Shown: positions 16,414 to 61,211, counted from the first letter of the stretch. The stretch is DNA of 64,000 nt from an uncultured Gemmataceae bacterium (GCA_963750165.1 CAVVPN010000003.1:2624001-2688000), one strand, 5' to 3'. The notes: generated from the letters alone by a model not told the origin. Numbers and translations: made by a program.

Positions 16414-16440
16414 TACAGGCGGCCCGCCTGCACACTGTCG

Positions 16441-16782
16441 GTAGGACGGCTCTCCAGAGCCGTCGCTGCGACGTGAGACGGCTCTGGAGAGCCGTCCTAC
16501 TTCTACTGTGCGGAATGCGGGGAATGGAGAAGGTGTGGGACGGCTCTCCAGAGCCGTCGCTGCGACGTGAGACGGCTCTGGAGAGCCGTCCTACTTCTAC
16601 TGTGCGGAATGCGGGGAATGGAGAAGGTGTGGGACGGCTCTCCAGAGCCGTCGCTGCGACGTGAGACGGCTCTGGAGAGCCGTCCTACTTCTACTGTGCG
16701 GAATGCGGGGAATGGAGAAGGTGTGGGACGGCTCTCCAGAGCCGTCGCTGCGACGTGAGACGGCTCTGGAGAGCCGTCCTAC
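16441..16782. repeat. BIME-like tandem REP array (4 x 60-bp palindromic doublets, 94-bp period)
   Basis: GT(A/G)GGACGGCTCTCCAGAGCCGTC...GACGGCTCTGGAGAGCCGTCCTAC at 16441, 16535, 16629 and 16723, with identical 34-bp linkers. Confidence 0.93.
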
Positions 16783-16800
16783 GAATAGCTGGAGAGTCCC

Positions 16801-32653: not shown

Positions 32654-32784
32654 CTACTTCTACTGTGCGAGGTGGAGTGGGATGAGGCGTAGGACGGCTC
32701 TCCAGAGCCGTCTGTGTCGAAGAAGACGGCTCTGGAGAGCCGTCCTACGCCTCGCTTTCCCCGCATCCCGCACAGTAGAACTAC
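32654..32784. repeat. REP doublet (same family as the 16441 array) nested in inverted linker arms
   Basis: GTAGGACGGCTCTCCAGAGCCGTC doublet at 32689-32748, flanked by TTCTACTGTGCG / CGCACAGTAGAA. Confidence 0.88.
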
Positions 32785-36271: not shown

Positions 36272-36370
36272 GGAGGCGCCGAACAACAACTTCCAAGAGT
36301 AGGACGGCTCTCCAGAGCCGTCCCGACGGCTCTGGAGAGCCGTCCTACGAAGTTGTTGTTCGGCGCCTCC
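36272..36370. repeat. REP doublet nested in a 22-bp inverted repeat
   Basis: Doublet at 36299-36348; outer arms GGAGGCGCCGAACAACAACTTC / GAAGTTGTTGTTCGGCGCCTCC. Confidence 0.88.
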
Positions 36371-38146: not shown

Positions 38147-38312
38147 GCGCTTCTTTTCTGCCGCTTGCGGATCAGGGTGTTCGCGGCAGCCGACGCCTGG
38201 AAAGCACCCGTCTTGCCCCGCAACCGAAGGGGCGCATAATAGATTCTGTGGACGCAGAACAGACCTACCACGAATGCTCGGCGACACCCTCACCGGAGTC
38301 AGGCCTCAACTT

Positions 38313-40805
38313 ATGCGACCCACCGCCACCATCTTTGTTGTTGCGCTGGTCCTGACCGTAAGTTTTGTCGGCGTCACCGCAGCCGGGGCGGCGGCGCAAA
38401 AGCCCGCTGCCTTGACGAAAGAAGGCGTGGCGTTCTTCGAGAAGTACATCCGTCCGGTCCTGGCCGAGCGCTGTTACGAGTGTCATTCGACGCAGTCCAA
38501 AAAGGTGAAGGGCGAACTGCTGCTCGATTCGCAACCGGGCATGGCCAGGGGGGCGCCAACGGCCCAGTCCTGGTCCCCGGCGATGTCGAAAAAAGCCGGC
38601 TGATCCAGGCCATCCGCTGGACCGACTCCGACTTCGCCATGCCGCCCAAGGCCAAGCTGTCGCCGCAGCAAATCGAGCGCTTCGAGCAGTGGGTCAAGAT
38701 GGTGCGCCGGACCCGCGCACCAAGGTGGTGTCAGCAGCGCCCAAGAAAACGCTCGCCTCCGACCTGGAGGCCGGTCGCAAGTGGTGGGCGTTTCTTCCGG
38801 TGAACCCGGTGGCCGCGCCGGTGGTCAAGCAATCGGCATGGGCCAGGAAGAAAAGCGACTTTTTCGTGCTGCACGAACTCGAAGCGAAAAAAATCGCCCC
38901 GTCGCCCCGCGCCGATCCCCGCACGCTCATTCAACGCGCTTACCTCGACCTCACCGGCCTGCGCCCCAGCTACGAACAAACCGAGGCCTTCGCCAAAAAT
39001 CCCACCGATCAGGCCTACGCACAGATCGTCGAACAACTCCTCGCCTCGCCCCAGTATGGCCAGCGCTGGGGCCGCTACTGGCTCGATGTCGTCCGCTACG
39101 GCGAGGACAACCCGACCTCCGAAGCCACCAACCGGCCCTATCCCTATGCGTGGCGCTACCGTGACTGGGTCATTGATGCCATCAACCGCGACGTGCCGTA
39201 CAACCAGTTCGTCGCGCTGCAGCTCGCCGCCGACCTGATCCCGAAGACGCCCCGCGGCGACCTCGTCGCCACCGGCTTCCTGGCGCGGGGCCGATCTATC
39301 ACAAGGACGGCCGCCTGTCCAAGGAGGTCATCGAAAACCTCTACATGGATGATTGGGACGAGCGCGTGGACGTGGTTTCCCGCGGCGTGCTCGGGCTCAC
39401 CGTGGCCTGTGCCCGCTGTCACGATCACAAGTTCGACCCGATCTCCAGCCGCGATTACTACGCCCTGGCCGGGGTCTTCGCCTCCACGGTCGCCGCCCCC
39501 CGCCCTCTGGCCGCCGTCGATCCCCAGGTCGAAACGCGCTTCATGGCCGCGACCCAGCGTCTTTTCTACGTCAGCTACCTCGCCAATTTGATGCGCAGCG
39601 AACCGGGAACCAGGCCGAAGGCAGCCCGGAAAAAGGTCGAGCAGTTCATCAAGGAACTGGACAGTATTGAGGCCGAGATCGCCGACCTCCGCGACCAGTA
39701 TCCCGCGCTTCATGCCCACCTCGCCCGCCTGGACAAGCGGCCGGCGCCTTACGAAACCAGGCCGGGCACCAGGACGGCCCCGCCGGCGGGGAAGCAAAAA
39801 AAGAAACGCGGCGACGGCGCCGAACCGTATTTCCATTCGGTCTTTGACGCCGGCCTGTGGGTGGACGGCACCGACCCGGACCTGACGCTGCTCGACATCC
39901 GGCCCGGCCAGCCCCGCGACCTGCGCGTGCTCGCCGGCGGCAACGTCGCCAAGCCCGGCGAAGTCGCCTCGCGTGGCTTCCCGGCCGTCCTGGCGAAGGG
40001 TGACCCCAAATTTCACCACGGCTCGGGCCGGCGGGAACTGGCGGCAAAAATCTTTACCGACGCCGCCCCGCTCGCCGCCCGGGTCATCGTCAATCGCGTC
40101 TGGGGCTGGCACTTCGGCAAGCCGCTGGTCGAGACGCCGAGCGATTTCGGCACCCAGGGCGAGAAACCGTCGCACCCCCAGTTGCTCGACGACCTGGCCG
40201 CGCGTTTCATCGCCCACGGCTGGTCGCTCAAATGGCTACACCGCGAGATCATGCTCTCCGCCGCCTACCAGCAGGCCAGCCGCCCGCGCCCCGACGCCGC
40301 CAAACTCGACCCCGGCAATCGCCTGCTGTGGCGGATGAACCCGCGCCGCCTCGACATCGAGGCGTATCGCGACTGCCTCCTGCAAGCGACCGGCAGTCTG
40401 GACACCCGTCTGGGCGGCCCGTCCACGGATCTCGACCAGTCCGGCAACAAGCGCCGCACCGTGTACGGCCGTGTCAGCCGCGGGCGCGTCAATGGCCTGC
40501 TGGCACTTTACGGCTTCCCCGAAGCGACGATGCACAGCCCCGGCCGCGAGACCACGACCACGCCGCTGCAGCAACTGTTCGTTCTGAACAGTCCGTTCCT
40601 GCGCGACCGGGCCGCCGCGCTCGTCGGCAGTGTCGCGCAGGAGCCGGACGGGAACGCGAAGGTGCGTGCCCTGTACCGCCGGGTGCTGGCCCGCGACCCC
40701 AGCCCGCGCGAGTTGACGCTGGCGAACGCCTACCTCGCTGGCGGCAGCCTGACCGATTACACCCACGCGCTGCTCTGCACCAACGAGGTCATTTACTGGC
40801 CGTGA
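38313..40805 (+). CDS. PSCyt1 + DUF1549 + DUF1553 cytochrome c protein (about 3 frameshifts)
   Basis: [60 protein letters not shown]. Confidence 0.88.
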
Positions 40806-44807: not shown

Positions 44808-45107
44808 GCGAAAAGGGGGCCAGGTCAGGTTTCACACGATTTTGAGAATCGTATGAAAACTGACCTGGCCCCCCTTTTCGCTTCCGGCGCTGGCCGCGGC
44901 CTGCGGTGACGTGCAGACGCGCGGAGCATGCGGAGACTTCTCGTCACCAATTTAAGACTGTCCGGGTGGCTTGTCGTTTTCCCGGCGTTTCTTACTTGCA
45001 ATCCGAAAAGGGGGCGGTTACGCGGCCGCCAGCGTAAAACTGGGAAAACCGAGGCGCGGCGAGCGCCCCAATCCATGTTCGGCCTTGTAGCCGTAAATAA
45101 TGACCCC
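44808..45107 (-). mobile_element. Copy A (inverted, truncated) of a GGGGTCA-bounded non-autonomous element
   Basis: 74-bp hairpin 44808-44881, then the reverse complement of the shared body, ending TGACCCC at 45107. Confidence 0.8.
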
Positions 45108-45340
45108 TCTCTACAGGTCCCATCCCCGCCCCCGTCGCCTGTTACTTCATGCCCGGCGTCGGCTGGTACGCCCGTTCAGGGGAGTGCCACCCGACTGATT
45201 GTTGGAAAAAAATGTCCGAAAATACTTTTTCCGGCCCCGCCGGCTACTTCCGCATACCAGACTGAAGAGGGACGGATTTGGTCCACTCCCCGTAGCCGCC
45301 GCCCCCCACCCGCGCTTTCCTTTTCCCAACGGAGCAGCTT

Positions 45341-48300
45341 ATGTGGCCCGCGTTCCGCAGTCCGTCCTGTCGCCCACCGATTGCCCGCCCCCGCGGCGCC
45401 CGCGCCGCGGGCGCACCTCGCTCCACCTGGAGATGCTTGAGGACCGTACCGTCCCGACGAACCTGGTCTACTGGCACGGCGGCTCCATCCTGCAAAACGT
45501 CATCGCCGTCCCGACCTTCTGGGGCACCAGCTTCGCGTCGCAGTACAAGAGCCTGGAGACCCAGGAAACCAACTTCACGTCCTACCTCGTCAACAGTACC
45601 TACATGGACATGATGTCCGAGTACGGCACGCCGGCCACCTCGGCGATTGAGGAAACGGACCAGCCCGGCGGCGCTCCGGTCTTCACGTCCACCAACCACC
45701 CGGCCCACACCATCGGCCGCGGCTCCGTCGGCGACGTGGAGGTGGACACCGACCCCGGCGCGCCGACGACCGGCACCACCGTCACGGACGGCCAGATTCA
45801 GGACAACATCGCCGGCGACCTGTTCGCCAACACTCTGGACTCGCTGGGCGTGCCGGGCGTCTCCGCCCTCGACGAGAGCTTTTTCGACAACAACTACCAG
45901 TCGCTCTACCCCGACGTGCTGTTCGTCGTCTACCTGCCGCCGGGCGTCAACGTGCAGGACGCCAACGGCCAGACCCTCTACCAGTTCCAGAACGGCTCGG
46001 AGGAGCGCGGCTATCACGGCACGTTCGGCCTGGACCAGCAGGGCAACGTGGACCGCTTCAGCAACGGCAGTGACGCGCTCGGCTCCAACGACGTTTTCGT
46101 CCACTACGCGGTTGTGCCGTACCCCACCGGCGGCGTCAGCACGACCAACTTCGACCAGGTGACCATTACCGCCTCGCACGAGATCATGGAGGCGGTTACC
46201 GACCCGCTGCAGGAGACGGACAACAGCGGCAACATCACCCAGGCCGGCTTCATCATCGACAACCCGACGGCCTTCGACAGCCACCTCGGCAGCGGCGACA
46301 ACGAGGTCGGCGACCTGGTGGAGTTCCAGCCGCCCAACCTGTCGGTCTCGGAGCTGGGCGGCTACGCCGTGCAGAACATGTTCTCCAACGTGGTCTACAA
46401 CGCCAACCACGCCTCGCACGGCATCAAGGCGCCCGCCGGCTCCACGAGCTACGGCGGCTTCGCCCTGGCCGACGGCGACGACAACCCGCAGCACACGAGC
46501 GCACCCGTGCTCGGCAGCACCAGCACCTCGGTCACCACGCTGCCCAACGGCCACACGCTGACCATCTCCACGACGACGCTGGCCAACGGCACCGTCACCG
46601 GCACCTTCAGCGCCCAGCTGGACCCGTCGGGCCTCGGCACCACCGAGGCCGACGTCAAGCCGGTGGACGGCATCAACGTCTACAGCTTCAACGAGACCAT
46701 CACGCCGCAGGGCATGCTGACCGGCAACTTCACGATCACGGCCGAGGGCAAGGCACTGGGCTACACGGTGCCGGACGCGCCGTCGCTGGTGCCCAGCACT
46801 GCCCTGGCCCTGACCGCCGTGTCGCCCAACAACACCGCGACCAGCTGGACGTTCTCGGGGCAGCTGGCCAGCTTCACCGATGCCGCCGGCGCCAGCGACG
46901 CCGCCAGCATCAACTGGGGCGACGGCAGCCTCACGGCCGGCACCATCGTCGCCGACGCGAACGTGCCCGGCCAGTTCGACGTGAAGGGCACGCACACCTA
47001 CGCCGCCGGCTCGACCGGCACGAACCGCTCGGTGTACGTCATCATCCACAAGTCGGACGGCAGCCAGGTGGTCGCCGACGCGCAGATCATCAACGGCGTC
47101 GCGGACCTGGTGGCGACGGCGCTGCCGGCGGACGAGGTGCAAGGCTCGTCGGCGGTGGTCGCCCTGGACGTGTTCTCGGACCTGGGCGGCCTGCACTCGG
47201 CCAGCTGGTACACGGCGACGGTGAACTGGGGCGACGGCACGGTCACGTCCGGTTCGGTGGTCGCGTCGGGCAGCCAGTTCGTGGTGCTGGGCAACCACCC
47301 CTATCAGCAACCCGGGCACTACCACGTCACGGTCACCGTGCAGGACATCGACAGCAGCAAGGACACGTTCCCGAGCACCGTCACGGTGCGGGCCACCCAG
47401 CCGAGCGCCATCGGCGGCTTCGACCCGACGACGGCGACGTGGTACCTGCACAACGGCGTCGGCGGTGGCGCCGCGGACGCCGGCTCGTTCCAGTACGGCG
47501 CGCCCGGCTGGATTCCGGTGACCGGCGACTGGACGGGCAGCGGCCACGAGGGCATCGGCGTCTACAACCCGGCGACGGCGACGTGGTATCTGCGCAATTC
47601 GGTGACGCCGGGCCCCGCCGACGAGGTGATCCAGTTCGGGGCGCCGGGCTGGCTGCCGGTGGTCGGCGACTGGAGCGGCGGCGGTCACACCGGCATCGGC
47701 GTGGTCAACCCGAGCACCGACACGTGGTATCTGCGCAACGAAGACAGCCCCGGGGCCGCGGACGCGGGCACGTTCCAGTTCGGCGCCCCCGGCTGGCTGC
47801 CCGTGGCGGGCGACTGGAACGCGACGGGCCGGGCCGGCATTGGCGTCTACAACCCGAGCACGGCGACGTGGTATCTGCGCGGCGAGGCCAGCGGCGGGCC
47901 AATCGACGTTGGCACCGTGCAGTACGGTGCGCCGGGTTGGACGCCGATCGTCGGCGACTGGGGCGGCCACGGCCACACCGGCCTGGGCATCCTCAACCCG
48001 GCCGGCGGCGCCTGGTATCTGCGCAACGAGGTGACGGCTGGCCCACCGGACGCCGGGGTGTTCGGCTACGGTTCGCCGGGCTGGCTGCCGGTGGCGGGCG
48101 GGTGGATCGGTTCGGCCCGCAACGGCATTGGCGCCGTCAACCCGGCGACGGCGACGTGGTATCTGCGCAACCAGGCCAGCGCCGGCGGCGTCACGGTCGG
48201 CGCCTTCCAGTTCGGCTCGGCCGGCTGGATTCCGCTGGTGGGCGACTGGAACGGCACCGGCCACGACGGCATCGGCGAGTACGACCCGAGCACGGCGACG

Positions 48301-48822
48301 TGGTATCTGCGCAACGAGGACAACGGCGGCCCCGCCGACGCGGGCGTCTTCCAGTTCGGGGCGCCGGGCTGGATTCCGGTGGTCGGCGACTGGACGGGCG
48401 CGGGCCACACGGGCATCGGCGTCTTCGACCCGCGCACCGCCACGTGGTATCTGCGCGTCGAGGCCAGCGGCGGCCCCGCCGACGCGGGCGTCTTCCAGTA
48501 CGGGGCGGCCAACTGGATTCCGGTGACCGGCGACTGGACGGGGGCCGGCTACACGGGCATCGGCGTCTTCGACCCGGGCACGGCGACGTGGTATCTGCGC
48601 ACGCTGGCCAACCCGGGTCCGGCCAACGCGGTGTTCCAGTACGGGGCGCCGGGCTGGCTGCCGGTGGTCGGCGACTGGTCGGGCGACGGCTTCGACGGCA
48701 TCGGCGTGTACTACCCCGGCAGCGGGGCGTGGTATCTGCGCTCCACCCCGAGCGCGGGGCCGCAGACGATGGCGTTCGGTTACGGGTCGCCGGGCTGGAA
48801 GCCGGTTGTTGGGGAGTTTTAG
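45341..48822 (+). CDS. Large secreted protein: LEDRTVP export motif, HExxE (Phi-1/EXORDIUM-like) domain, PKD/Ig-like domains, about 10 beta-propeller-type repeats
   Basis: LHLEMLEDRTVP; SHEIMEAVTDP; INWGDG/VNWGDG; ~48-aa PVVGDWxGxG..GIGV..P.TATWYLRN repeats; start uncertain (ATG 45341 with frameshift, or GTG 45343). Confidence 0.85.
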
Positions 48823-48833
48823 GGAGAGGAAAC

Positions 48834-49282
48834 GGGGTCAGGTTTATTTACGGCTACAAGGCCGAACATGGATTGGGGCGCTCGCCGCGCCTCGGTTTTC
48901 CCAGTTTTGCGCTGGCCGGCGGCCGCGTACAGACGTGTGTGTCTTGCGCGGCCGCCGACCAGCGCAACCGCCCCCTTTTCGGATCGCAAGTGAGAAACGC
49001 CGGGGAAACGACAAGCCACCCGGACAGTCTTAAATTAGTGACGAGAAGTCTCCGCATGCTCCGCGCGTCTGCACGTCACCGCAGGCCGCGGCCAGCGCCG
49101 CGACGTGCGCCGGCGTCGTGCCGCAGCAGCCGCCGACCAGCACCGCCCCCGCCCGCACCACCTCCGGTAACCAGTCCGCCAGCTGCCCCGGTGTCACCGG
49201 ATACCCCCAGGCGAAAAGGGGCCAGGTCAGTTTTCACACGATTTTGAGAATCGTATGAAACATGACCTGACCCCCTTTTCGC
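48834..49282 (+). mobile_element. Copy B (most complete) of the GGGGTCA-bounded element
   Basis: Starts GGGGTCAGGTTTATTTACGG; internal hairpin; HMT fragment; terminal 72-bp hairpin 49211-49282 containing CCTGACCCC. Confidence 0.85.
49030..49208 (-). pseudogene. 3' fragment of a homocysteine S-methyltransferase gene (also at 54264-54442)
   Basis: Translates YPVTPGQLADWLPEVVRAGAVLVGGCCGTTPAHVAAL; GGCCGT.P.H is the HMT Zn-binding C-terminal motif. Confidence 0.85.
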
Positions 49283-49483
49283 TTCCGAGAACGATGCCGG
49301 TGGGCACCGCTCGGCTCTCGGGATGTCGAATGACGATTTTCAGAATCGTGTTATCGGTCTCTGCCCCTTTTATCCTCCCCTTTTATTCTCTCGCGCTTTT
49401 TCTTTGCTATCAGCGGGTTATGAGAAGCGTCCCCGTTTTCTCCCGGTGGCTTTTTTCTCTGGCGTCTCGCCGCAAGCGCGTTG

Positions 49484-52400
49484 TTATTCCGGGGGCTGAT
49501 TTTCTTCCTGGGCTGTCGGGAGCAGTTGCCCGAGAAGTTTCGCAATCTGCTCGGCCTCGGGTAAGCCGTGCTCCCGTGCAGTTTGCAGTGCCCAGAAGAG
49601 ATGGCCCAGCGCCGTTTCTATCTCCTCTGTACGGCCGCGCTGCAACAGCGTCAGGCCGATGTTGGTCCGGCAGACGATCAGTTCGCGCACGTCGCCGAGG
49701 CGCTCGTAGACGGGCAGTTGCTTCTCCTGGCGGATGGCCAGGGCCTCGTCCAGCCGGCCCCGCGCGAACAGGATGTCGGCGACCTTGCCGTGCGCGACCG
49801 CCAGGGAGCGCACGTCGCCGAGGCGCTCGTAGACGGGCAGTTCCTTCTCCTGACGGATGGCCAGGGCCTCGTCCAGCCGGCCCCACCGGAACAGGATGTC
49901 GGCGACCTTGCCGTGCGTGACCGCCAGGGAGCGCACGTCGCCGAGGCGCTCGTAGACGGGCAGTTCCTTCTCCTGGCGGATGGCCAGGGCCTCGTCCAGC
50001 CGGCCCCGCGCGAACAGGATGTCGGCGACCTGGCCGTGCGTGACCGCCAGTTCGCGCACGTCGCCGAGGCGCTCGTAGACGGGCAGTTGCTTCTCCTGGC
50101 GGATGGCCAGGGCCTCGTCCAGCCGGCCCCACCGGAACAGGATGTCGGCGATGTCGCCGTGCGTGACCGCCAGGGAGCGCACGTCGCCGAGGCGCTCGTA
50201 GACGGGCAGTTCCTTCTCCTGGCGGATGGCCAGGGCCTCGTCCAGCCGGCCCCGCGCGAACAGGATGTCGGCGACCTTGCCGTGCGTGACCGCCAGGGAG
50301 CGCACGTCGCCGAGGCGCTCGTAGACGGGCAGTTCCTTCTCCTGACGGATGGCCAGGGCCTCGTCCAGCCGGCCCCGCCGGAACAGGATGTCGGCCAGAC
50401 GGCCGTTGGCAACGGCTTCTTGATTCTCTTTGCGGAGTTTTGCGAATAGCCCGATGGCCTGGCGAATGTACTGTTCCGCCTTCGCCACGTCTCCCTTGCT
50501 AAACAGCAGTTCGCCAAGTTCGGCCAGGGCCTGCGCCCGTTCTTCGGTATCCTGTGTCCCCGCCACTTCCAGGGCGCGTTCCAGGAGTTGCTGTGCGTCC
50601 TCGGCATCCCCGACAATCTGACAGGACAGTGCGGAAAGACGAAGAAGGTGAAACGGCGGCACGGCGTGCGCCTGGTCAATGACTGCGATGGATTGCCTCC
50701 CCAGGGCGGCGGCGTCCCGGTAGGCGTGCCGGGCGCGCAACATGCCGACCACCTCGCCGGCATCGGCGGCCACGACCTCGGCGTCGCGGGCCAGGATGCC
50801 CATGCGCGTCAATTCTCTGTTCAGGGGCAACGGTCGGGCCTGCGCCCCCGCCGCCCCGCCCCACGCGGCAAACAGTGGCTTGCAAACCAGCGTCGCCAGT
50901 TGCGCTGCTTCCGCCTGGTTCATGATGACGAACCTTCCTGTTCCAGTTGAGGCCGCACCAGTGGATCGACCAGCGCGTGATCGTGGCCGCGGCGGAAATC
51001 GAGCGGGTTTTCAAACCGATTGAGCAGGCCCAGGTCGAACTGGCGTTGCACGGCCGCGACGGCCGCCGCGGCATCCGCATGGTGCCGCGGATGAAGAAGT
51101 GGCAGCACCGCTTGCGGCGCCGGGATTTCAAACAGCGTCGAGCGGCGCAGCAGTTCGCGCTCATCGGGTGTGAGCAACCCGAGCAGTTCGTGGATCGCGA
51201 CGATGTTGAGGAACTCGCGCAGGCGCGGTTCGCTGGTCTGTCCTCGCGTCCGGAATTCCTGGGCGGCCTCCCGGAAGCGCTGGAAGGCGTCCGCGCTTTC
51301 GGCCCGCAGGCGGGCCGCGCGGCTCATGAGGCTCGGACTGCCGAACGCATCGTCGATGGCGCCGGCAAGTTCCTGGAAGAGTTGCTGCTCACTATCGAGC
51401 GCCTCCTGGGGGCTGATACCCGGGTTGTGCTTGATCTGCTCCGCGACCCGTTGCCGGGCCAGTTGCAACGTCTGCCGCAGCATTTCGCCGGGGGCCATGT
51501 CCGGCAGCTGGTAGAACGCCAGGCGCCGGTCCGCGTCCTTGCCGTTCACGACGCAGGTGAAGCGATACCGGCACGTGATCAGCAGCAAGGAGTCGTGTTC
51601 CGTGGTCGCGAAGGCGGTCACCAGGGCGGCGACCCCCGCCTCCAGTTCCGGCCTGACGCGGTGCAGCTTGCCGGGCATCGATTCCAGGGCACGTTCAAAA
51701 TCGTCCACGACCAGGAGGATCGGGCGCTGCTCGGCGCGGCCGCCGTGCGTGTGCAGCTCGCGCAAGGGGCCGCGCAACAGCCGGGCCAGCACCAGGGTGA
51801 AGGCGTCAGCCGTCAACTCCCCGGAGCCGGCCTCGTCGAGGATGCGCTGGACCTCCACGGCGCCGGCGTGTCCCTCCAGCGCGGTGGACGAGCGGAGCGC
51901 CCGCAGGATGCCCGCCGGCGTGTAGTCGTTGAATACGACCACCAGGTCGTAGGATGGGAAGCGCGAGGCCAGGCGGCAGGCGAGACTGCTCTTGCCGTGT
52001 TGCCCGAGTCCGTGGATCACCGTGGGTTGGTGCGTGCGCAGACAACGCAGGACGTCCTGCAAGGGGCGGCGGCGGCCCACAAACTCATACCGCGACGCGA
52101 CGGGGATCTGCTTGTTGATCCTGTCGAGGAATTCCTGATCCGCGCGGCCGGCGTCGTGCCAGTGGCGGCGCCGGTCGCCGCCGGTGATCTTGCCGCCGCC
52201 CTGCGCCCAAAAAAGACGCGGGCCTTGTGCCATTCCGTTTTTACTTCCCTGTCTCCGTGGCGGCCCAGCGTTTTCCGGGCCTGGGCGACGGCGGCCTCCA
52301 GCGACTCCCGCATGGCCAGGCGCCGGTACAGTTCGGCGGCGAAACAGGTGGCGCCCACGTCGCTCACCTTGCCCGCCCAGCCGAGGACGGCCGGGAAGCC

Positions 52401-53210
52401 CTTCAGGGCCAGGGCGCCGGCGAGCGAACCGAGCAGCTGATCCGGCTGGGCAGTGGTGCACGCCGACAGGAACAGCAACCGCGGCCGAAACTCGCCGAAC
52501 TGCTCCGCGATCTCCCGCGCCCCGACCAGCTCCGGTTCGCCGAGTTCGGTCTCCAGCGCCAGCACGGGGCGGTCGGTCAGGTTGCCGTGGCACGATAGGT
52601 GGACGATGTCCACGCCGCCGTCGCCCTCGGTCTCCTCCTGAATGCGCCGGGCGAGCGCCTCGAGGTTGCCGGTGTCCTCGCACAGGAAATCGACCCCGGT
52701 CGCGTGAACAGCTTGCAGGATGGCCTGTTCTTCCGCGTCGTGGTCGAGCGGCATGGCGTTGCCGCGCGGGTCGGCGGCCATGAAGACCATGGCCGGGCGG
52801 TAGCGCGACGCGGCGGGCGGTTCCCGTCGGGGGAGCAGGCGGCGGACCACGGAAAACGACAGGAACTCTGCCTCCGCGAGGTAGCCGTCCTCGTCGCGGA
52901 GCAGTTCCCAGGATACGTCCAGGAACAGCCGGTTGCCGCCGGCTTCGAGGACGAACTCGAGCCATAGCGCGTCCGGCGTTTCGTCGCGGTAACGGCCGAG
53001 CAGCCGGTCGGCACCATCGAGCCATTGATAGAGTTCCCGGCCGATCTGAGAACGCCGGTCGGAAGTTGCCGTGCCGCCGGCGTAATCCTGGAGCCAGGTG
53101 GCGAACCGCCCGGCGTCGGCGGGGGTGGTAGGCCGCTGACCCAGGTCGCGCCCGTCGCGCGTGGCGCGGAGATGGGTCGCGGACAGTGAAATGCAAACGG
53201 GCGAGGCCAC
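49484..53210 (-). CDS. CHAT (caspase-like) protease - STAND/P-loop NTPase - TPR protein, split by apparent frameshifts near 52210 and 50925
   Basis: IVHLSCHG and LFLSACTT dyad; FVGRR, HGLGQHGKSSLA, LLVVDDFE, LITCR; six 40-aa TPR-like repeats. Confidence 0.87.
49681..50397 (-). repeat. Six near-identical 120-bp coding tandem repeats (TPR units)
   Basis: GRLDEALAIRQEKxLPVYERLGDVRxLAVxHGxxADILF repeated with 120-bp period. Confidence 0.95.
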
Positions 53211-53264
53211 GGGTCGCTCCCGATCTGAGAAGCAGGGGCCGGAGGTCGCACGCGGTGGGCACGG

Positions 53265-53711
53265 TTACTGCGCAGGGTTCGCCACCGCCGCCGTCTCCGG
53301 GATGACGGCCACGTCCTTCATGACCTTGCAGGTCAGGTCGTGGAGCTGCTCGGCGTCGCCTTCGTGGAGGAACAGCGCCTTGTCGCCGATGATCGCGCGG
53401 ATGGTGGTCGGCAACTTTTGCTGGGCCCAATGGATCAGACCCAGCCAGTGCAGAACAAGGGCCTCGCGCCGCTTCTCGTACCCTTCGCGGATCTTATCGT
53501 AGACGTGGAACAGCACCACGGCGACTTCCAGAACCACGAGGGTTGCGTGGAGCGGGTCGATCATCTTGTCCGCGCCCGTTCCGGCCAGATCGGTCGATGG
53601 AGCGGCAGTGCGGATGGTGGGTCTGATCTTGAACCGGGCTTCCATCAGGTCGGCGAACTGCTGTGCGACGATGGCGCTGTCCTTGCCCTGGACGCGGAAC
53701 TCGATAGACAT
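53265..53711 (-). CDS. Small hypothetical protein upstream of the CHAT-STAND-TPR gene (possible co-effector/substrate)
   Basis: AGGGGG RBS; 148 aa with central hydrophobic helix LHATLVVLEVAVVLFHVY; 54 bp from the CHAT gene. Confidence 0.72.
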   Translation of the reverse strand: MSIEFRVQGKDSAIVAQQFADLMEARFKIRPTIRTAAPSTDLAGTGADKMIDPLHATLVVLEVAVVLFHVYDKIREGYEKRREALVLHWLGLIHWAQQKLPTTIRAIIGDKALFLHEGDAEQLHDLTCKVMKDVAVIPETAAVANPAQ

Positions 53712-53838
53712 GGTGCCCCCCTTGGGCTTCTGGTTGGGATTGCTTTCAGGTTTATTTTCTCCCCAACCTCCATGATGTCAAGCCCCGGGTAGTCCCGGGC
53801 ACGGAAAAGGGTCCGATTAAAAGGAAGGGACAAAGAGG

Positions 53839-54028
53839 AACCGCACTGGCTACCTTTGGAGGTAGCTAACCCCAGTCGGGCAAGGGGTTAGGTCAACGAA
53901 GCCTTGGATTTTTCAGCCACATTCCGGGTGGGCAAACGAGGCGGGCCGGAGGTCGGCCGGCGGCTCAACCCAGGAAACCCAGGGAAAAATCAGGGATCGA
54001 GACCCCGCCAAAGATAGCCAGTGCGGTT
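53839..54028. mobile_element. 190-bp MITE with 11-bp TSD
   Basis: 21-bp TIR AACCGCACTGGCTA(C/T)CTTTGG (1 mismatch); GGACAAAGAGG at 53828-53838 and 54029-54039. Confidence 0.9.
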
Positions 54029-54104
54029 GGACAAAGAGGGCTCATCTCATTCTGGCAGCTGGCTCGTCGGAATGGGTTATTTCTTCGCTAAAACCCACAT
54101 ACCA

Positions 54105-54472
54105 GGGGTCAGGTTTATTTACGGCTACAAGGCCGAACATGGATTGGGGCGCTCGCCGCGCCTCGGTTTTCCCAGTTTTGCGCTGGCCGGCGGCCGCGTA
54201 ACCGCCCCCTTTTCGGATTGCAAGTGAGAAACGCCGGGGAAACGACAAGCCACCCGGACAGTCTTAAATTAGTGACGAGAAGTCTCCGCATGCTCCGCGC
54301 GTCTGAACGTCACCGCAGGCCGCGGCCAGCGCCGCGACGTGCGCCGGCGTCGTGCCGCAGCAGCCGCCGACCAGCACCGCCCCCGCCCGCACCACCTCCG
54401 GTAACCAGTCCGCCAGCTGCCCCGGTGTCACCGGATACCCCCTTTTCGCTTCTTCCTGACCCCCTTTTTCGC
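54105..54472 (+). mobile_element. Copy C of the GGGGTCA-bounded element (hairpins collapsed)
   Basis: Near-identical to 48834-49208 but lacking one arm of the internal hairpin; ends CCCCCTTTTCGC..CCTGACCCCCTTTTTCGC. Confidence 0.85.
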
Positions 54473-54521
54473 TTCTTCCTGGCTTCGTAAACCTCACCTT
54501 CTCACCTGCAAGGGCGCCGAA

Positions 54522-58731: not shown

Positions 58732-58786
58732 GGAGCTCGAGCGCCAGCGAGGAGCAGCGCTGGCCCCTCGCTGGCGCTCGGGCTCC
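58732..58786. repeat. REP-like palindrome (GAGCGCCAGCGAGG family)
   Basis: GGAGCTCGAGCGCCAGCGAGG / CCTCGCTGGCGCTCGGGCTCC. Confidence 0.75.
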
Positions 58787-59179
58787 AACCGGAAACGCGA
58801 ATCGCCAGGGCGCTGCCGTATAAGTCCGTTCTGGATAGGGCGAGCGGTTACGCGAATCACACGTTCGGCGGCTTGACGGTGCAAAGGGGTTCGTTTGGCA
58901 TAGTGTCTTTGGCGTTTTCTGAGTCGAAAAAATGCAAGTGATTCGAGAATGCAGCCTGAAGGATTACGCTGGACAGTTCTGGCAGCGCCAGAGGGGAAAG
59001 AAAACTCGTGATGACGAACCTGCGATCTCGGACATTGAAAGAGGTGGAGATCCTGTTTTCTGGCTAGCTAACATCTATCCGTACAAGCTGCCCCAACCAT
59101 ATAACGACAAGATTGAACTGGTCAAGTTCGAGGAACCTGAGGAACTCAATTGCCTCCTCATTCATTACTCGATGATTAA

Positions 59180-60566
59180 GGCAACGTTTCAAAATTAATC
59201 CGCAGTTCCCTTCTACAATAACCCTGGCCCAACCGGGGGCCTGGTTTGGAAGGGAGGCAGAGCCGTGGACATCCACCAATGCCAATGCCCTCACTGCCGA
59301 CAAGGTGCGGACCACCCCGAACGCGCCCTCCATTACCGGCTCAACCTTCTCCTGAGCCGGTTGGATGAGCACCAACGCCGGTGGTTGGCAGCCTGGGAGT
59401 CCCAGAAGGTCGGCCGCGGCGGCGACCGCCTACTGTCCCTCATCACCGGCCTGAACGTGGAAACCATCCGGCGCGGTCGCCGGGAACTCGAGGACTCCCT
59501 GCGGGACTGCCCCCCGGATCGCATCCGCCGGCCCGGGGCAGGACGGCCCGCTGTGAAAAAAAAGTGCCGGGCCTCATGAACGCTTTGAGGCAGCTGGTTG
59601 AGGAGCAGACCGCCGGCAGCCCGCAAACCTGTCAGAAGTGGGTGCGCCACAGCGTCGCCTACCTGAGCACGCGGTTGCAAGGCCAAGGCTTCGCCGTCAG
59701 CCCCGCCACGGTCTATCGCCTGTTGGACGACCTGGGCTATTCGCTCAAGGCCAACCGCAAGCGCTTCACCGGCCCGCCTCACCCAGACCGGGACCGGCAG
59801 TTCGCGTACATCGCCGGGCAGCGGCGCCGCTTCGCCATCCTCGGCCAGCCGGTGATCAGCGTGGACAGCAAGAAAAAGGAGTTGATCGGCAACTTCAAGA
59901 ATGCAGGGCGGCAGTGGTGCCGGCACGCCACGGAGGTCAACGCCCACGACTTCCTGGACGACGCCTTGGGCCGGGCCGTCCCCTACGGGGTCTACGACGT
60001 GCGCCAGGACCGCGGCCATGTCTACGTGGGGTTGTCCGCCGACACCGCGGCGTTCGCGGGGGACGTGATCGGCCGGTGGTGGCGCGGCGAGGGACGGCTG
60101 TGGTACCCGCAGGCCGACGAGTTGCTGATCCTGTGCGACGCGGGCGGGAGCAACAGTTGCCGCGTGCGGTTGTGGAAACAGCGCCTCCAGGAGGAGTTGG
60201 CCGACCGCTGGGGGCTGTGGGTGACGGTGTGCCATTACCCGCGGGGGGCGTCGAAGTGGAACCCGGTGGAGCACCGGCTGTTCAGCCGCATCAGCGTCAA
60301 CTGGGCGGGGGAGCCGCTGCGAACCGTGGAGACGCTGTTGGCCTGCATCCGGGGCACGGAGACGGACGCCGGTTGGGCGGTACGTGCGACGTTGCTGGAC
60401 GCGGAGTACGCGAAGGGGGTCAAGGTGCCGGACGCAGAAATGCAGACGTGGCGCCTCCAAAGGCATGCCGTCTGCCCCAGTTGGAATTACACCATCAAGC
60501 CACGTTGGACAATATTCTAACATCAGCACCCAGGTGTAAGCTGCGGACTAATTTTGAACGGCTGCC
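59180..60566 (+). mobile_element. ISAzo13-family insertion sequence, 1387 bp
   Basis: Imperfect TIR GGCAACGTTTCAAAATTAATCCGCAG vs GGCAGCCGTTCAAAATTAGTCCGCAG; 3-bp TSD TAA. Confidence 0.93.
59265..60520 (+). CDS. ISAzo13 transposase (orfA/orfB joined by a probable -1 frameshift at A8G, 59556-59564)
   Basis: RIRRPGAGRP, HPDRDRQF, ISVDSKKKELIGNFKN.G, DAGGSN, SKWNPVEHRLFS. Confidence 0.92.
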
Positions 60567-61211
60567 TAAGGACGACTGGATGGTGGAACGCTGTCTTGTT
60601 CCCTGTCCGAAAACTCGACGATTGGGAGACATGGCTGCAATTGCACTTGAGCGAAGATATTTTGAGTCCAGTCATTCTGGCACGCAGATAACGCTGTTTC
60701 GAGAGTGGAAGGACAAGCAGACGCTAACGGGTTTTATTAGCGCAGAATCGTGTCCTCTCGTGGAGATGACTTGGGAACGCGTGTATGAGATCGTGGATGG
60801 ATGGGGCCGTCTACATGCGATGGCTGCACTCGTGAAGTATGGAAGTAAGTTCGAGCCATTTGAATGCTTCGTCGCGAATAGGAAAACGGACGCTGGGCAG
60901 GTTTCTGGTTGAGGGGCAACCGCTGAACCATCTTTGCACGTGGCGGGTCGTATCAGGCTACACGGACACGCCGGGTCGAGCGGCTCGAACGTGAATTGAG
61001 GTGTTCGGTCCCGGAGAGCGGATGAAATTCAACCGATTCCTGGGGGCAATGATTGCCAGGAGGGTATTGACGCAGCTGGCTCAGATGCGTTGTCGCTTCA
61101 TAGTAATGTACTCCTTTCGGCCAGCGCTCGACCGAGTTTGTGAAATCACCGAAAACGTATACCCTTTCACTCATTCATACAGCTGTTGAACCTACCTCTT
61201 GAGAACCAGCG

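Follow-up and report, generated by a model that had tools for sequence, protein, structure and literature searches.

The 64,000-nucleotide stretch of DNA analysed here (the window) is G000:C3:2624001-2688000, part of contig C3 of an uncultured Gemmataceae genome (GCA_963750165.1; G000 below) of 9.6 Mb in 12 contigs. It contains three copies of a repeat, A (44885-45107, inverted), B (48834-49210) and C (54105-54442), whose blocks are 95-100% alike, as an earlier note on this DNA had described. A and B are inverted repeats around a 3.5-kb gene (cargo 1), B and C are direct repeats around CHAT-STAND-TPR genes (cargo 2), and here too our analysis agrees with that note. Planctomycete-specific Pfam families lie on either side of the region. 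A BLAST search of the genome with the unit, which the note had proposed, found a fourth copy, D, at C12:63763-64134 (96.8% identity) and a single intact homocysteine S-methyltransferase (HMT) gene on contig C4. From its sequence, the repeat is a composite: a terminal inverted repeat (TIR) of the kind that ends TIRtrons, a predicted integron-type promoter with an attI-like site (about 200 bp, called the module below), and an HMT scrap of just 28-138 bp. The earlier note had missed that most of the body is such a module. The parts in and around the window copies are as follows (HMM, hidden Markov model; IS, insertion sequence; / marks the attI-like point).

44808..44881 (74 bp, no strand): hairpin A, a TIR dimer in which two inward TIRtron ends of the GGGG-CCAG type enclose a short palindromic loop (fold).
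44885..44912 (plus): 28-bp HMT 3' end remnant of copy A, equal to C4:530390-530417 (BLAST, 100%).
44911..45082 (plus): module A (HMM E 7.2e-9), predicted -35 TTGCAA at 44996-45001, 17 nt, decayed -10 TACGCG at 45019-45024; internal hairpin deleted; attI-like G/TT at 45077/45078; directed at cargo 1.
45101..45107 (minus): TIR end of copy A, GGGGTCA and then a 3-bp deletion (alignment).
48834..48851 (plus): TIR end of copy B (sequence), laid out like the TIRs before attC sites.
48862..49074 (minus): module B (HMM E 7.9e-9), mutated -35 TTGCGA at 48989-48984, -10 TGCGCT at 48966-48961; hairpin retained; attI-like G/TT at 48867/48866; antisense into cargo 1.
49073..49210 (minus): 138-bp HMT 3' fragment of copy B, 99.3% to C4:530280-530417, ending at most 2 nt from a cryptic GGGGGT.
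49211..49282 (72 bp, no strand): hairpin B, a TIR dimer with its loop oriented as in hairpin A (repeat family, fold).
49330..49437 (minus): more TIR relics past the cargo 2 stop codon, namely an end of the GGGGACGC type and one dimer half whose loop sequence is that of the dimers above (motif scan, sequence).
54035..54108 (no strand): IS110 end abutting the GGGG of the TIR, 98.6% to C12:1304369-1304442.
54105..54122 (plus): TIR end of copy C (repeat search, alignment).
54133..54308 (minus): module C (HMM E 2.2e-8), predicted -35 TTGCAA at 54223-54218, decayed -10 TACGCG at 54200-54195; hairpin deleted; attI-like G/TT at 54138/54137; directed at cargo 2.
54307..54442 (minus): 136-bp HMT 3' fragment of copy C, 99.3% to C4:530282-530417 (BLAST).
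54438..54475 (minus): collapsed hairpin and stuttered copy of the right-arm TIR at copy C (sequence, alignment, fold, motif scan).

The TIR end is identical in all four copies and the HMT end is distinct in each. B, C and D read GGGGTCAG at the TIR, and the 3-bp deletion makes this GGGGTCAT in A. The HMT ends of A, B, C and D map to C4:530390, 530280, 530282 and 530294, those of B and C falling at cryptic GGGGGT. The TIR is joined to four flanks: the 5' region of cargo 1, the 3' end of cargo 1, the IS110 end, and a cassette-like gene in D. In copy B it lies 11 nt past the cargo 1 stop codon, behind a purine run and 28 nt 5' of CCGAAC, and in copy C it is overlapped by the 74-bp IS110 end. That same end meets another TIR type ahead of an attC at C12:1304369-1304442. 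We saw no target-site duplication at the outer ends in the window, as the earlier note had reported, nor at D. With a single TIR and without a transposase, the window unit does not have the layout of a Y1 gene between inward TIRs; together with the HMT fragments this bears out the idea of a non-autonomous unit that carries host DNA. A Tn3-like element or a classical miniature inverted-repeat transposable element was ruled out, as there is no second fixed end and no target-site duplication.

Copies A, B and C terminate at TIR dimers or at what remains of them. Hairpin A folds at -40.2 kcal/mol (z -11.4) and hairpin B at -28.3 kcal/mol (z -9.4), with 0 of 200 shuffles as stable, so the 74- and 72-bp hairpins that had been predicted there are real. 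The end of copy C gave no stable fold, in line with the collapse that had been claimed for it, but the collapsed hairpin is also followed by a stuttered right arm; it is fused to HMT inside a common C run. What did not hold is the hairpin as the fixed other end of the unit: it meets HMT at a differing point and on a differing side in A and B, and D has none. Stuttered outer ends like that of C also occur at the C11 TIRtron, at C4:335626 and in the relative G002. Three variants are common to B and C against A and D, and because of this we conclude that A and B are not sister copies, that A is no fold-back of B and that the B-C pair is a later duplication. Short microhomologies are present at the junction of C and at the internal deletions of A and C. 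In 60 relatives the unit was matched via HMT alone, plus one hairpin with the same loop as hairpin A (G012:C278:5503); the relatives returned included no genome of the same genus. The exact pattern of the unit end was found in 0 metagenome stretches, and Rfam gave 0 matches. The element itself is restricted to a single genome and is probably a relic in decay.

The HMT gene at C4:529570-530430 (PF02574) shares only 138 bp with the unit, and tblastn confirmed that no full HMT gene is in the window. Copies B and C do carry the HMT 3' end that had been recognised in them, and A carries 28 bp of it too; the adjoining sequence, which had been taken for DNA downstream of HMT, is not. Similarity to C4 ends at C4:530417, and the remaining body, which is the integron-type module, is not present at the donor locus. 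About 310 bp past the HMT stop codon a Y1 transposase gene begins, enclosed by inward-facing GGGGTCAG TIRs (C4:530687 and 531433). This is the kind of enzyme that the earlier note had suspected behind the unit, and the first part of its locus is also found beyond copy D. In the sense of the donor, D consists of the HMT 3' end, the module, the TIR, a HEAT-repeat gene, another TIR, and the 5' part of the TIRYT locus (TIRYT being the TIRtron enzyme), this tail matching the first 280 bp of the C4 TIRYT locus at 97.9%. The HEAT-repeat gene is cassette-like, with 46-50% GC, and is interrupted by ISAzo13. From this order and this tail, D would be a segment that was moved here from the C4 locus as it stood at an earlier stage. 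Among 17 loci of relatives from unit matches (15 with HMT; 0.2-6.9 kb downstream) we found no TIRYT, and HMT C-termini across the relatives are too variable to tell the ancestral ending.

TIRtrons (Di Nocera et al. 2013) have TIRs with the motif GGGGWSAS that occur as singles and dimers, according to the available parts of PMC3733652 and PMC6006769, the first of which describes the dimers. In the classification of Quentin et al. 2018 (PMC6006769, in the part available), TIRYT is TnpA-Y1 subclass 2.1, which equals RAYT group 1. The GGGGWSAS motif takes the form GGGGTCAG in copies B, C and D and again at either end of the Y1 gene on C4, and a purine flank accompanies 17 of 311 GGGGTCAG sites, as compared with 2/349 and 0/215 sites of control motifs. 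The linked Y1 enzyme matches PF01797 above the cut-off and NF047646 below it (53.9 of 80 bits), and its HUH and tyrosine motifs are NHWH and YVERNP on C4, and NHWH and YVERNA in a homologue on C11. We assigned it to TIRYT on the TIR motif, not on a tree or a subclass profile. The C4 gene is broken by two frameshifts and one TAG in about 690 bp. Since multi-copy IS elements in this assembly have so few indel columns (two among seven 1392-bp copies and three among four 1510-bp copies), the break is probably genuine. The C11 TIRYT is intact, with 233 aa, GGTGTCAG TIRs and 68% DNA identity to the C4 gene. TIRYT homologues were found in 37 of the 101 family genomes searched, counting the genome itself, and an A-run with GGGG/GGTG TIRs at 21 of 29 TIRYT loci of relatives, several of the others being cut by contig ends; G002 has them too by eye.

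Some further TIRtron loci were seen along the way. At G123:C9:358100-362450, three copies of about 750 bp (98-99%) and partial ones lie in 4.3 kb with short spacers, which from the sequence is a recent local TIRtron amplification. At G002:C1009:1-1085, a TIRtron with a stuttered right TIR is nested in an inverted duplication with at least ~125 bp of flank; the locus sits at a contig start and may be an artefact. A second TIR-ended duplication in G000 (C12:293950-294551 and 301941-302544) is 604 bp long, 93.7% identical, direct, and 8 kb apart; its fixed end is GGGGTCAGGTTCATTTAC, and accessory genes lie between its copies.

Turning to the module, a profile of the part of the body that is not HMT found further diverged copies throughout the genome. 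On the opposite strand the module has a TTG-type -35 box, exactly 17 nt, a TACGCT-type -10 box, a hairpin and TAAT-N-G/TTCGG, beyond which the sequences diverge, often with a ribosome-binding site and start codon. GTTCGG is near-invariant in 16 aligned modules, with different DNA thereafter, and the 17-nt spacing is constant across the family while the spacer sequence varies. A consensus promoter scan does not call the module promoter. The boxes are intact in D; A and C are without the hairpin and the last T of the -10 box, and B is altered in both boxes. An attC site on the same strand within 3.5 kb downstream follows 9 of 11 non-element modules and 0 of 4 element copies, against 0.84% for random positions (17 modules were given and 15 parsed, two being dropped on parser failure). 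Modules also occur in tandem, the second beginning at the crossover of the first, or after attC sites (G000:C11:455435/455594, and in the relative G125). Of 12 other modules, 7 have a GTTC-type motif at a distance of 83-91 nt upstream of the -35 box, and the HMT junction lies 85 nt before it in A, C and D; B was unparsed but aligns.

The genome has 74 attC-like sites by HMM and one intI above the cut-off, which is intact (C4:1198587-1199845, TIGR02249, 426 bits); no intI adjoins the element copies. The DNA upstream of two intI copies is identical up to ...GGTTCG and then diverges into different first cassettes, and this fixes the true attI crossover. The module end motif TAAT-N-GTTCGG is the same as that at the integron crossover, and the short motifs in common are TGCTA...ATAATCAGA.GTTCGG. 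The attI-like cores are identical in all copies, and because the core looks intact in each, every copy is a potential integrase-less landing pad, but in A, B and C the promoter has decayed. A strict pattern found the same module layout in 2 of 150 other family genomes. In one of these, G125, there are six matches and one intI, and the five matches that we inspected are all followed by open reading frames (ORFs) and attC-like sites; an attC immediately precedes one of these five, and another attI-like end precedes a further one. An HMM trained on G125 modules gave no match in G000, and what is shared is thus the layout and the end motifs, not alignable sequence. A covariance model of the module gave weak matches in 6 of 149 relatives.

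The intact intI belongs to a chromosomal integron at C4:1098000-1199900 with dozens of attC sites, where a truncated second intI copy has its own attI (C4:1189736-1190728) and four identical TIR dimers lie in the array (1157923, 1168960, 1184711 and 1190728). In the window itself, 4 kb away from copy C, lies a small array without an integrase (58769-61007), made up of a weak promoter/attI-like module, a low-GC cassette gene that ISAzo13 interrupts, and an attC. At G125:C13:147522-149196 the intI lies on the cassette strand and comes right after a module, a cassette and an attC; it does not lie opposite attI.

TIRs also stand at a set position before attC sites. A purine-flanked GGGG[AT][CG] is found in the 120 nt upstream of 12 of the 74 sites, nine at 23-36 nt and all towards the attC, against 1.6% in random array DNA. 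A three-G variant adds six sites, for a total of 18/74, mostly 23-36 nt before R''. None of the upstream motifs points away; downstream of attC sites three point away and two towards. The TIR of the element lies 28 nt before CCGAAC, and because this spacing matches that of the TIRs before attC sites, the TIR side may be the 3' end of a cassette that was joined via R'', a configuration that the accessible part of PMC5027507 gives as the product of top-strand recombination. A reversed-TIR control pattern gave 0 matches in the 252 genomes searched with the strict TIR-then-attC pattern.

The genes between the copies are listed next.

45343..48822 (plus): cargo 1, about 1159 aa, start codon inferred; weak PKD-like matches and 48-aa WYLRN repeats.
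49484..50923 (minus): cargo 2 TPR gene (Pfam TPR_12), a separate gene in relatives too.
50920..53210 (minus): cargo 2 CHAT-STAND gene (Pfam CHAT, AAA_16/nSTAND1), with one frameshift near 52.2 kb.
53265..53711 (minus): cargo 2 148-aa gene (ORF148) of no known family, before CHAT-STAND in G218 and G220 too.

The protein of cargo 1 is probably secreted, judging by its sequence, and a search with its N-terminus gave a single 26% match. GC is 70% in cargo 1 and 69% in cargo 2, like the host. We ruled out that the cargoes are attC gene cassettes, as there is no attC after either; the attC HMM gave no site in 44808-54472, the nearest being at window 60925. The CHAT-STAND gene is one ORF of 728-760 aa in two relatives. 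A sequence error as the cause of the break between STAND and TPR was rejected, since relatives have the break too. ORF148 has its own sigma-70-like site at 53781-53754, and between this promoter and the IS110 end a 201-bp segment (53828-54028) is 95% identical to C11:19099-19298. The operon is patchy, with STAND in 3 of 251 relatives at 52-57%. Near it in these three relatives we detected no module and no attC (two loci are cut by contig ends), and no TIR save one motif inside a gene about 3 kb off. The CHAT part had no relative among the genome contigs, ORF148 matched only itself, and PADLOC gave weak domain matches and no system for cargo 2. The operon (window 49484-53711; loci L125, L126 and L127) is a candidate defence or signalling module. 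The note had further pictured the copies as delimiting swappable or invertible cassettes; the bracketed genes lack attC, the operon exists in relatives where no such repeats were seen and the promoters of A-C are decayed, and we did not uphold that picture. We read both gene blocks as passengers caught between the copies.

We favour, with slightly better than even confidence, an origin in which the unit was assembled at the C4 HMT-TIRtron locus and copied from there, by one-ended single-strand transfer by TIRYT, to C12 and three times to the window. To begin with, a gene-less promoter/attI-type cassette would have entered the last HMT codons, probably via IntI at a secondary site. A cassette end with a TIR 28 nt before the R'' box would then have been joined to the attI-like site of the module, possibly by top-strand attC recombination. 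Finally TIRYT would have cut immediately outside the TIR and attached the unit to other flanking DNA, in most cases at sites that had TIRs already (gene 3' ends, TIR dimers), carrying variable lengths of HMT, and the B-C pair would be a later local duplication. One-ended HUH transfer fits because one fixed end with variable capture is its expected product, and among TnpAREP enzymes those from other groups are known to nick single-stranded DNA and connect it to a new 3' end (PMC8266576, in the part available).

Several points weigh against this origin. C4 now holds unique DNA and no module between HMT and the TIRtron, and the ancestral HMT-module locus is therefore a reconstruction. The TIRYT that goes with this TIR is broken and the TIR of the intact enzyme differs at one position, the far end of D is not at a hairpin, and we found no cleavage or transfer test of a TIRYT in the literature searched. 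On the integron side, the attC HMM finds no attC after any of the four element copies, and two of the nine attC-heading modules share one array. An HMM built on 12 modules outside the element finds each of the four copies again (E 8e-14 to 2e-8), with further matches that precede attC sites, but this test is reciprocal, not independent, as the first profile had included the copies. The same HMM gives no match to the true attI at E<0.1, so that the link from module to attI rests on short motifs. The donor site is GTC and not the attG consensus GWT (10.1101/2022.09.11.507474, in the part available), and the junction is GTG in three of the four copies and GTT in C alone. The strict TIR-then-attC pattern occurs in only 2 of 252 genomes (G000 with five and G253 with two), and the G000-trained HMM places no attC within about 1.5 kb of any of 30 TIRYT loci.

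The main rival needs no transposase. The hairpins would stall replication forks or get cut, template switching and homologous recombination would have made the copies, and the TIR would be just a fragile site. We regard this as possible, at well under even confidence. The hairpins are very stable, there are the microhomologies at the C junction and at the internal deletions of A and C, B-C is a plain direct duplication, and a broken cognate TIRYT suits this account as well. It does not explain why the fixed end in 4/4 copies is a single TIR and not a palindrome, nor how the unit moved among three distant loci and brought part of a TIRYT gene to C12, and A is no fresh fold-back of B. It is quite unlikely, in our view, that the copies form an IntI-driven switch in which the A/B attI-like sites invert cargo 1 and the B/C sites release cargo 2 in the form of an attI-type cassette; this is the note's picture of swappable cassettes with IntI taken as the enzyme. 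An intact intI is present in the genome, the cores are identical, IntI1 excises attI1-ORF-attI1 efficiently in class 1 integrons (PMC12901181, in the part available), and the direct B/C sites could in principle permit a 5.27-kb excision. However, the repeat runs past both crossovers, into the TIR on one side and HMT on the other, which means that IntI was not the copier of it. Efficient excision would also leave the B-C state short-lived, the promoters of A-C are decayed, and the operon has its own promoter-like site and occurs in relatives without detected repeats.

IS110 itself probably targets TIRs. Its end abuts GGGGACGC TIRs at C12:1304442 (element at G000:C12:1302600-1304442) and C11:878537 (878537-878566), the third site is window 54035-54108, and two of these three junctions stand directly before attC sites. 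We think it very improbable that IS110 caused the rearrangements, although it touches the TIR of C: it is present at one of the four copies, BLAST finds one full-length element, which is frameshifted, and the variable HMT ends would be left unexplained. We give equally little credence to an assembly artefact. Frameshifts do occur here and there in the 12-contig assembly, and long reads can be upset by long hairpins, but the copies carry shared substitutions, distinct deletions and unique junctions, among multi-copy IS elements there are only some 0.3 indel columns for each kb of copy, and the three window copies all lie within one 3.56-Mb contig.

Two features of the window are separate from the repeat. 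A large Planctomycete-type gene at 38274-40805, which may be PSCyt/DUF1549/DUF1553-like, appears to be split into three ORFs by frameshifts or assembly errors. A family of GTAGGACGGCTC-type repetitive extragenic palindromes (16432-16790, 32680-32756 and 36290-36356) has a cognate RAYT-like gene at G000:C11:2305400-2306400, with repeats of this family on either side of it.

According to PMC4889954 (available part), it is unknown by what route integron cassettes arise. One idea, which we put forward tentatively and think rather doubtful, is that TIRYT (group 1 RAYT) is an assembly arm of these integrons that, through cutting and resealing at TIRs, moves landing pads about the chromosome and joins gene 3' ends to attC; if true, this would explain TIRs at a set distance and always facing the attC, and would offer a route to new cassettes. 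TIRs at a set distance before attC make cassette origin testable in vitro. Portable promoter-plus-attI modules, as predicted here, would explain the expression of small integrase-less arrays. The locus also gives a concrete substrate and prediction for TIRYT, namely that the TIR end is kept fixed and adjacent DNA is taken up by one-ended capture, and if our proposal is true TIRYT-type enzymes are movers of integron landing pads. We found neither a link between TIRYT and integrons nor promoter-plus-attI modules heading chromosomal integrase-less arrays in the literature searched, a search mostly out of reach of subscription papers.

The element resembles TIRtrons in its GGGGWSAS-type TIRs, in the Y1 gene between inward TIRs (C4, C11) and in the free single and dimer TIRs. 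It differs in that the window unit has one TIR, no transposase, and carries an integron module and host DNA; the available parts of PMC3733652 and PMC6006769 describe no cargo, transduction or integron link for TIRtrons. In the following comparisons, too, the sources are represented by the parts available. Like the attI-type (delta-attI) cassettes of class 1 and 2 integrons (PMC12901181), the mobile unit ends in an attI-like site and not in attC, and modules stand in tandem and directly after attC. Unlike those, the modules here are chromosomal, gene-less, have a whole predicted promoter and head many integrase-less arrays, and here one is additionally fused to a TIR and HMT. The gene-less promoter cassettes of Vibrio superintegrons (10.1101/2023.11.21.568050, which also cites such cassettes in Treponema) are likewise without an ORF and have a sense-strand promoter upstream of ORF cassettes, but they were tested with their own attC, whereas our modules end in an attI-like site and their promoter is predicted. 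Clusters of, or single, attC sites lacking integrases (CALIN/SALIN) and attG insertion (PMC4889954; 10.1101/2022.09.11.507474) are similar in that small attC arrays lie far from an intI that is present, and that insertion at a secondary site is probable here. The arrays in this genome differ from these in bringing their own predicted promoter and entry site; the four copies of the element are without attC, and the HMT site is GTC, not GWT. IS91/ISCR one-ended transposition, as summarised in PMC7923331, which also speculates that HUH elements might move a CALIN, shares an HUH enzyme, one fixed end and variable adjacent DNA. The enzyme here is instead a short RAYT-type Y1 and the element is non-autonomous; we identified no oriIS/terIS, and made no IS91-family search. 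Precedents exist for each of the parts.

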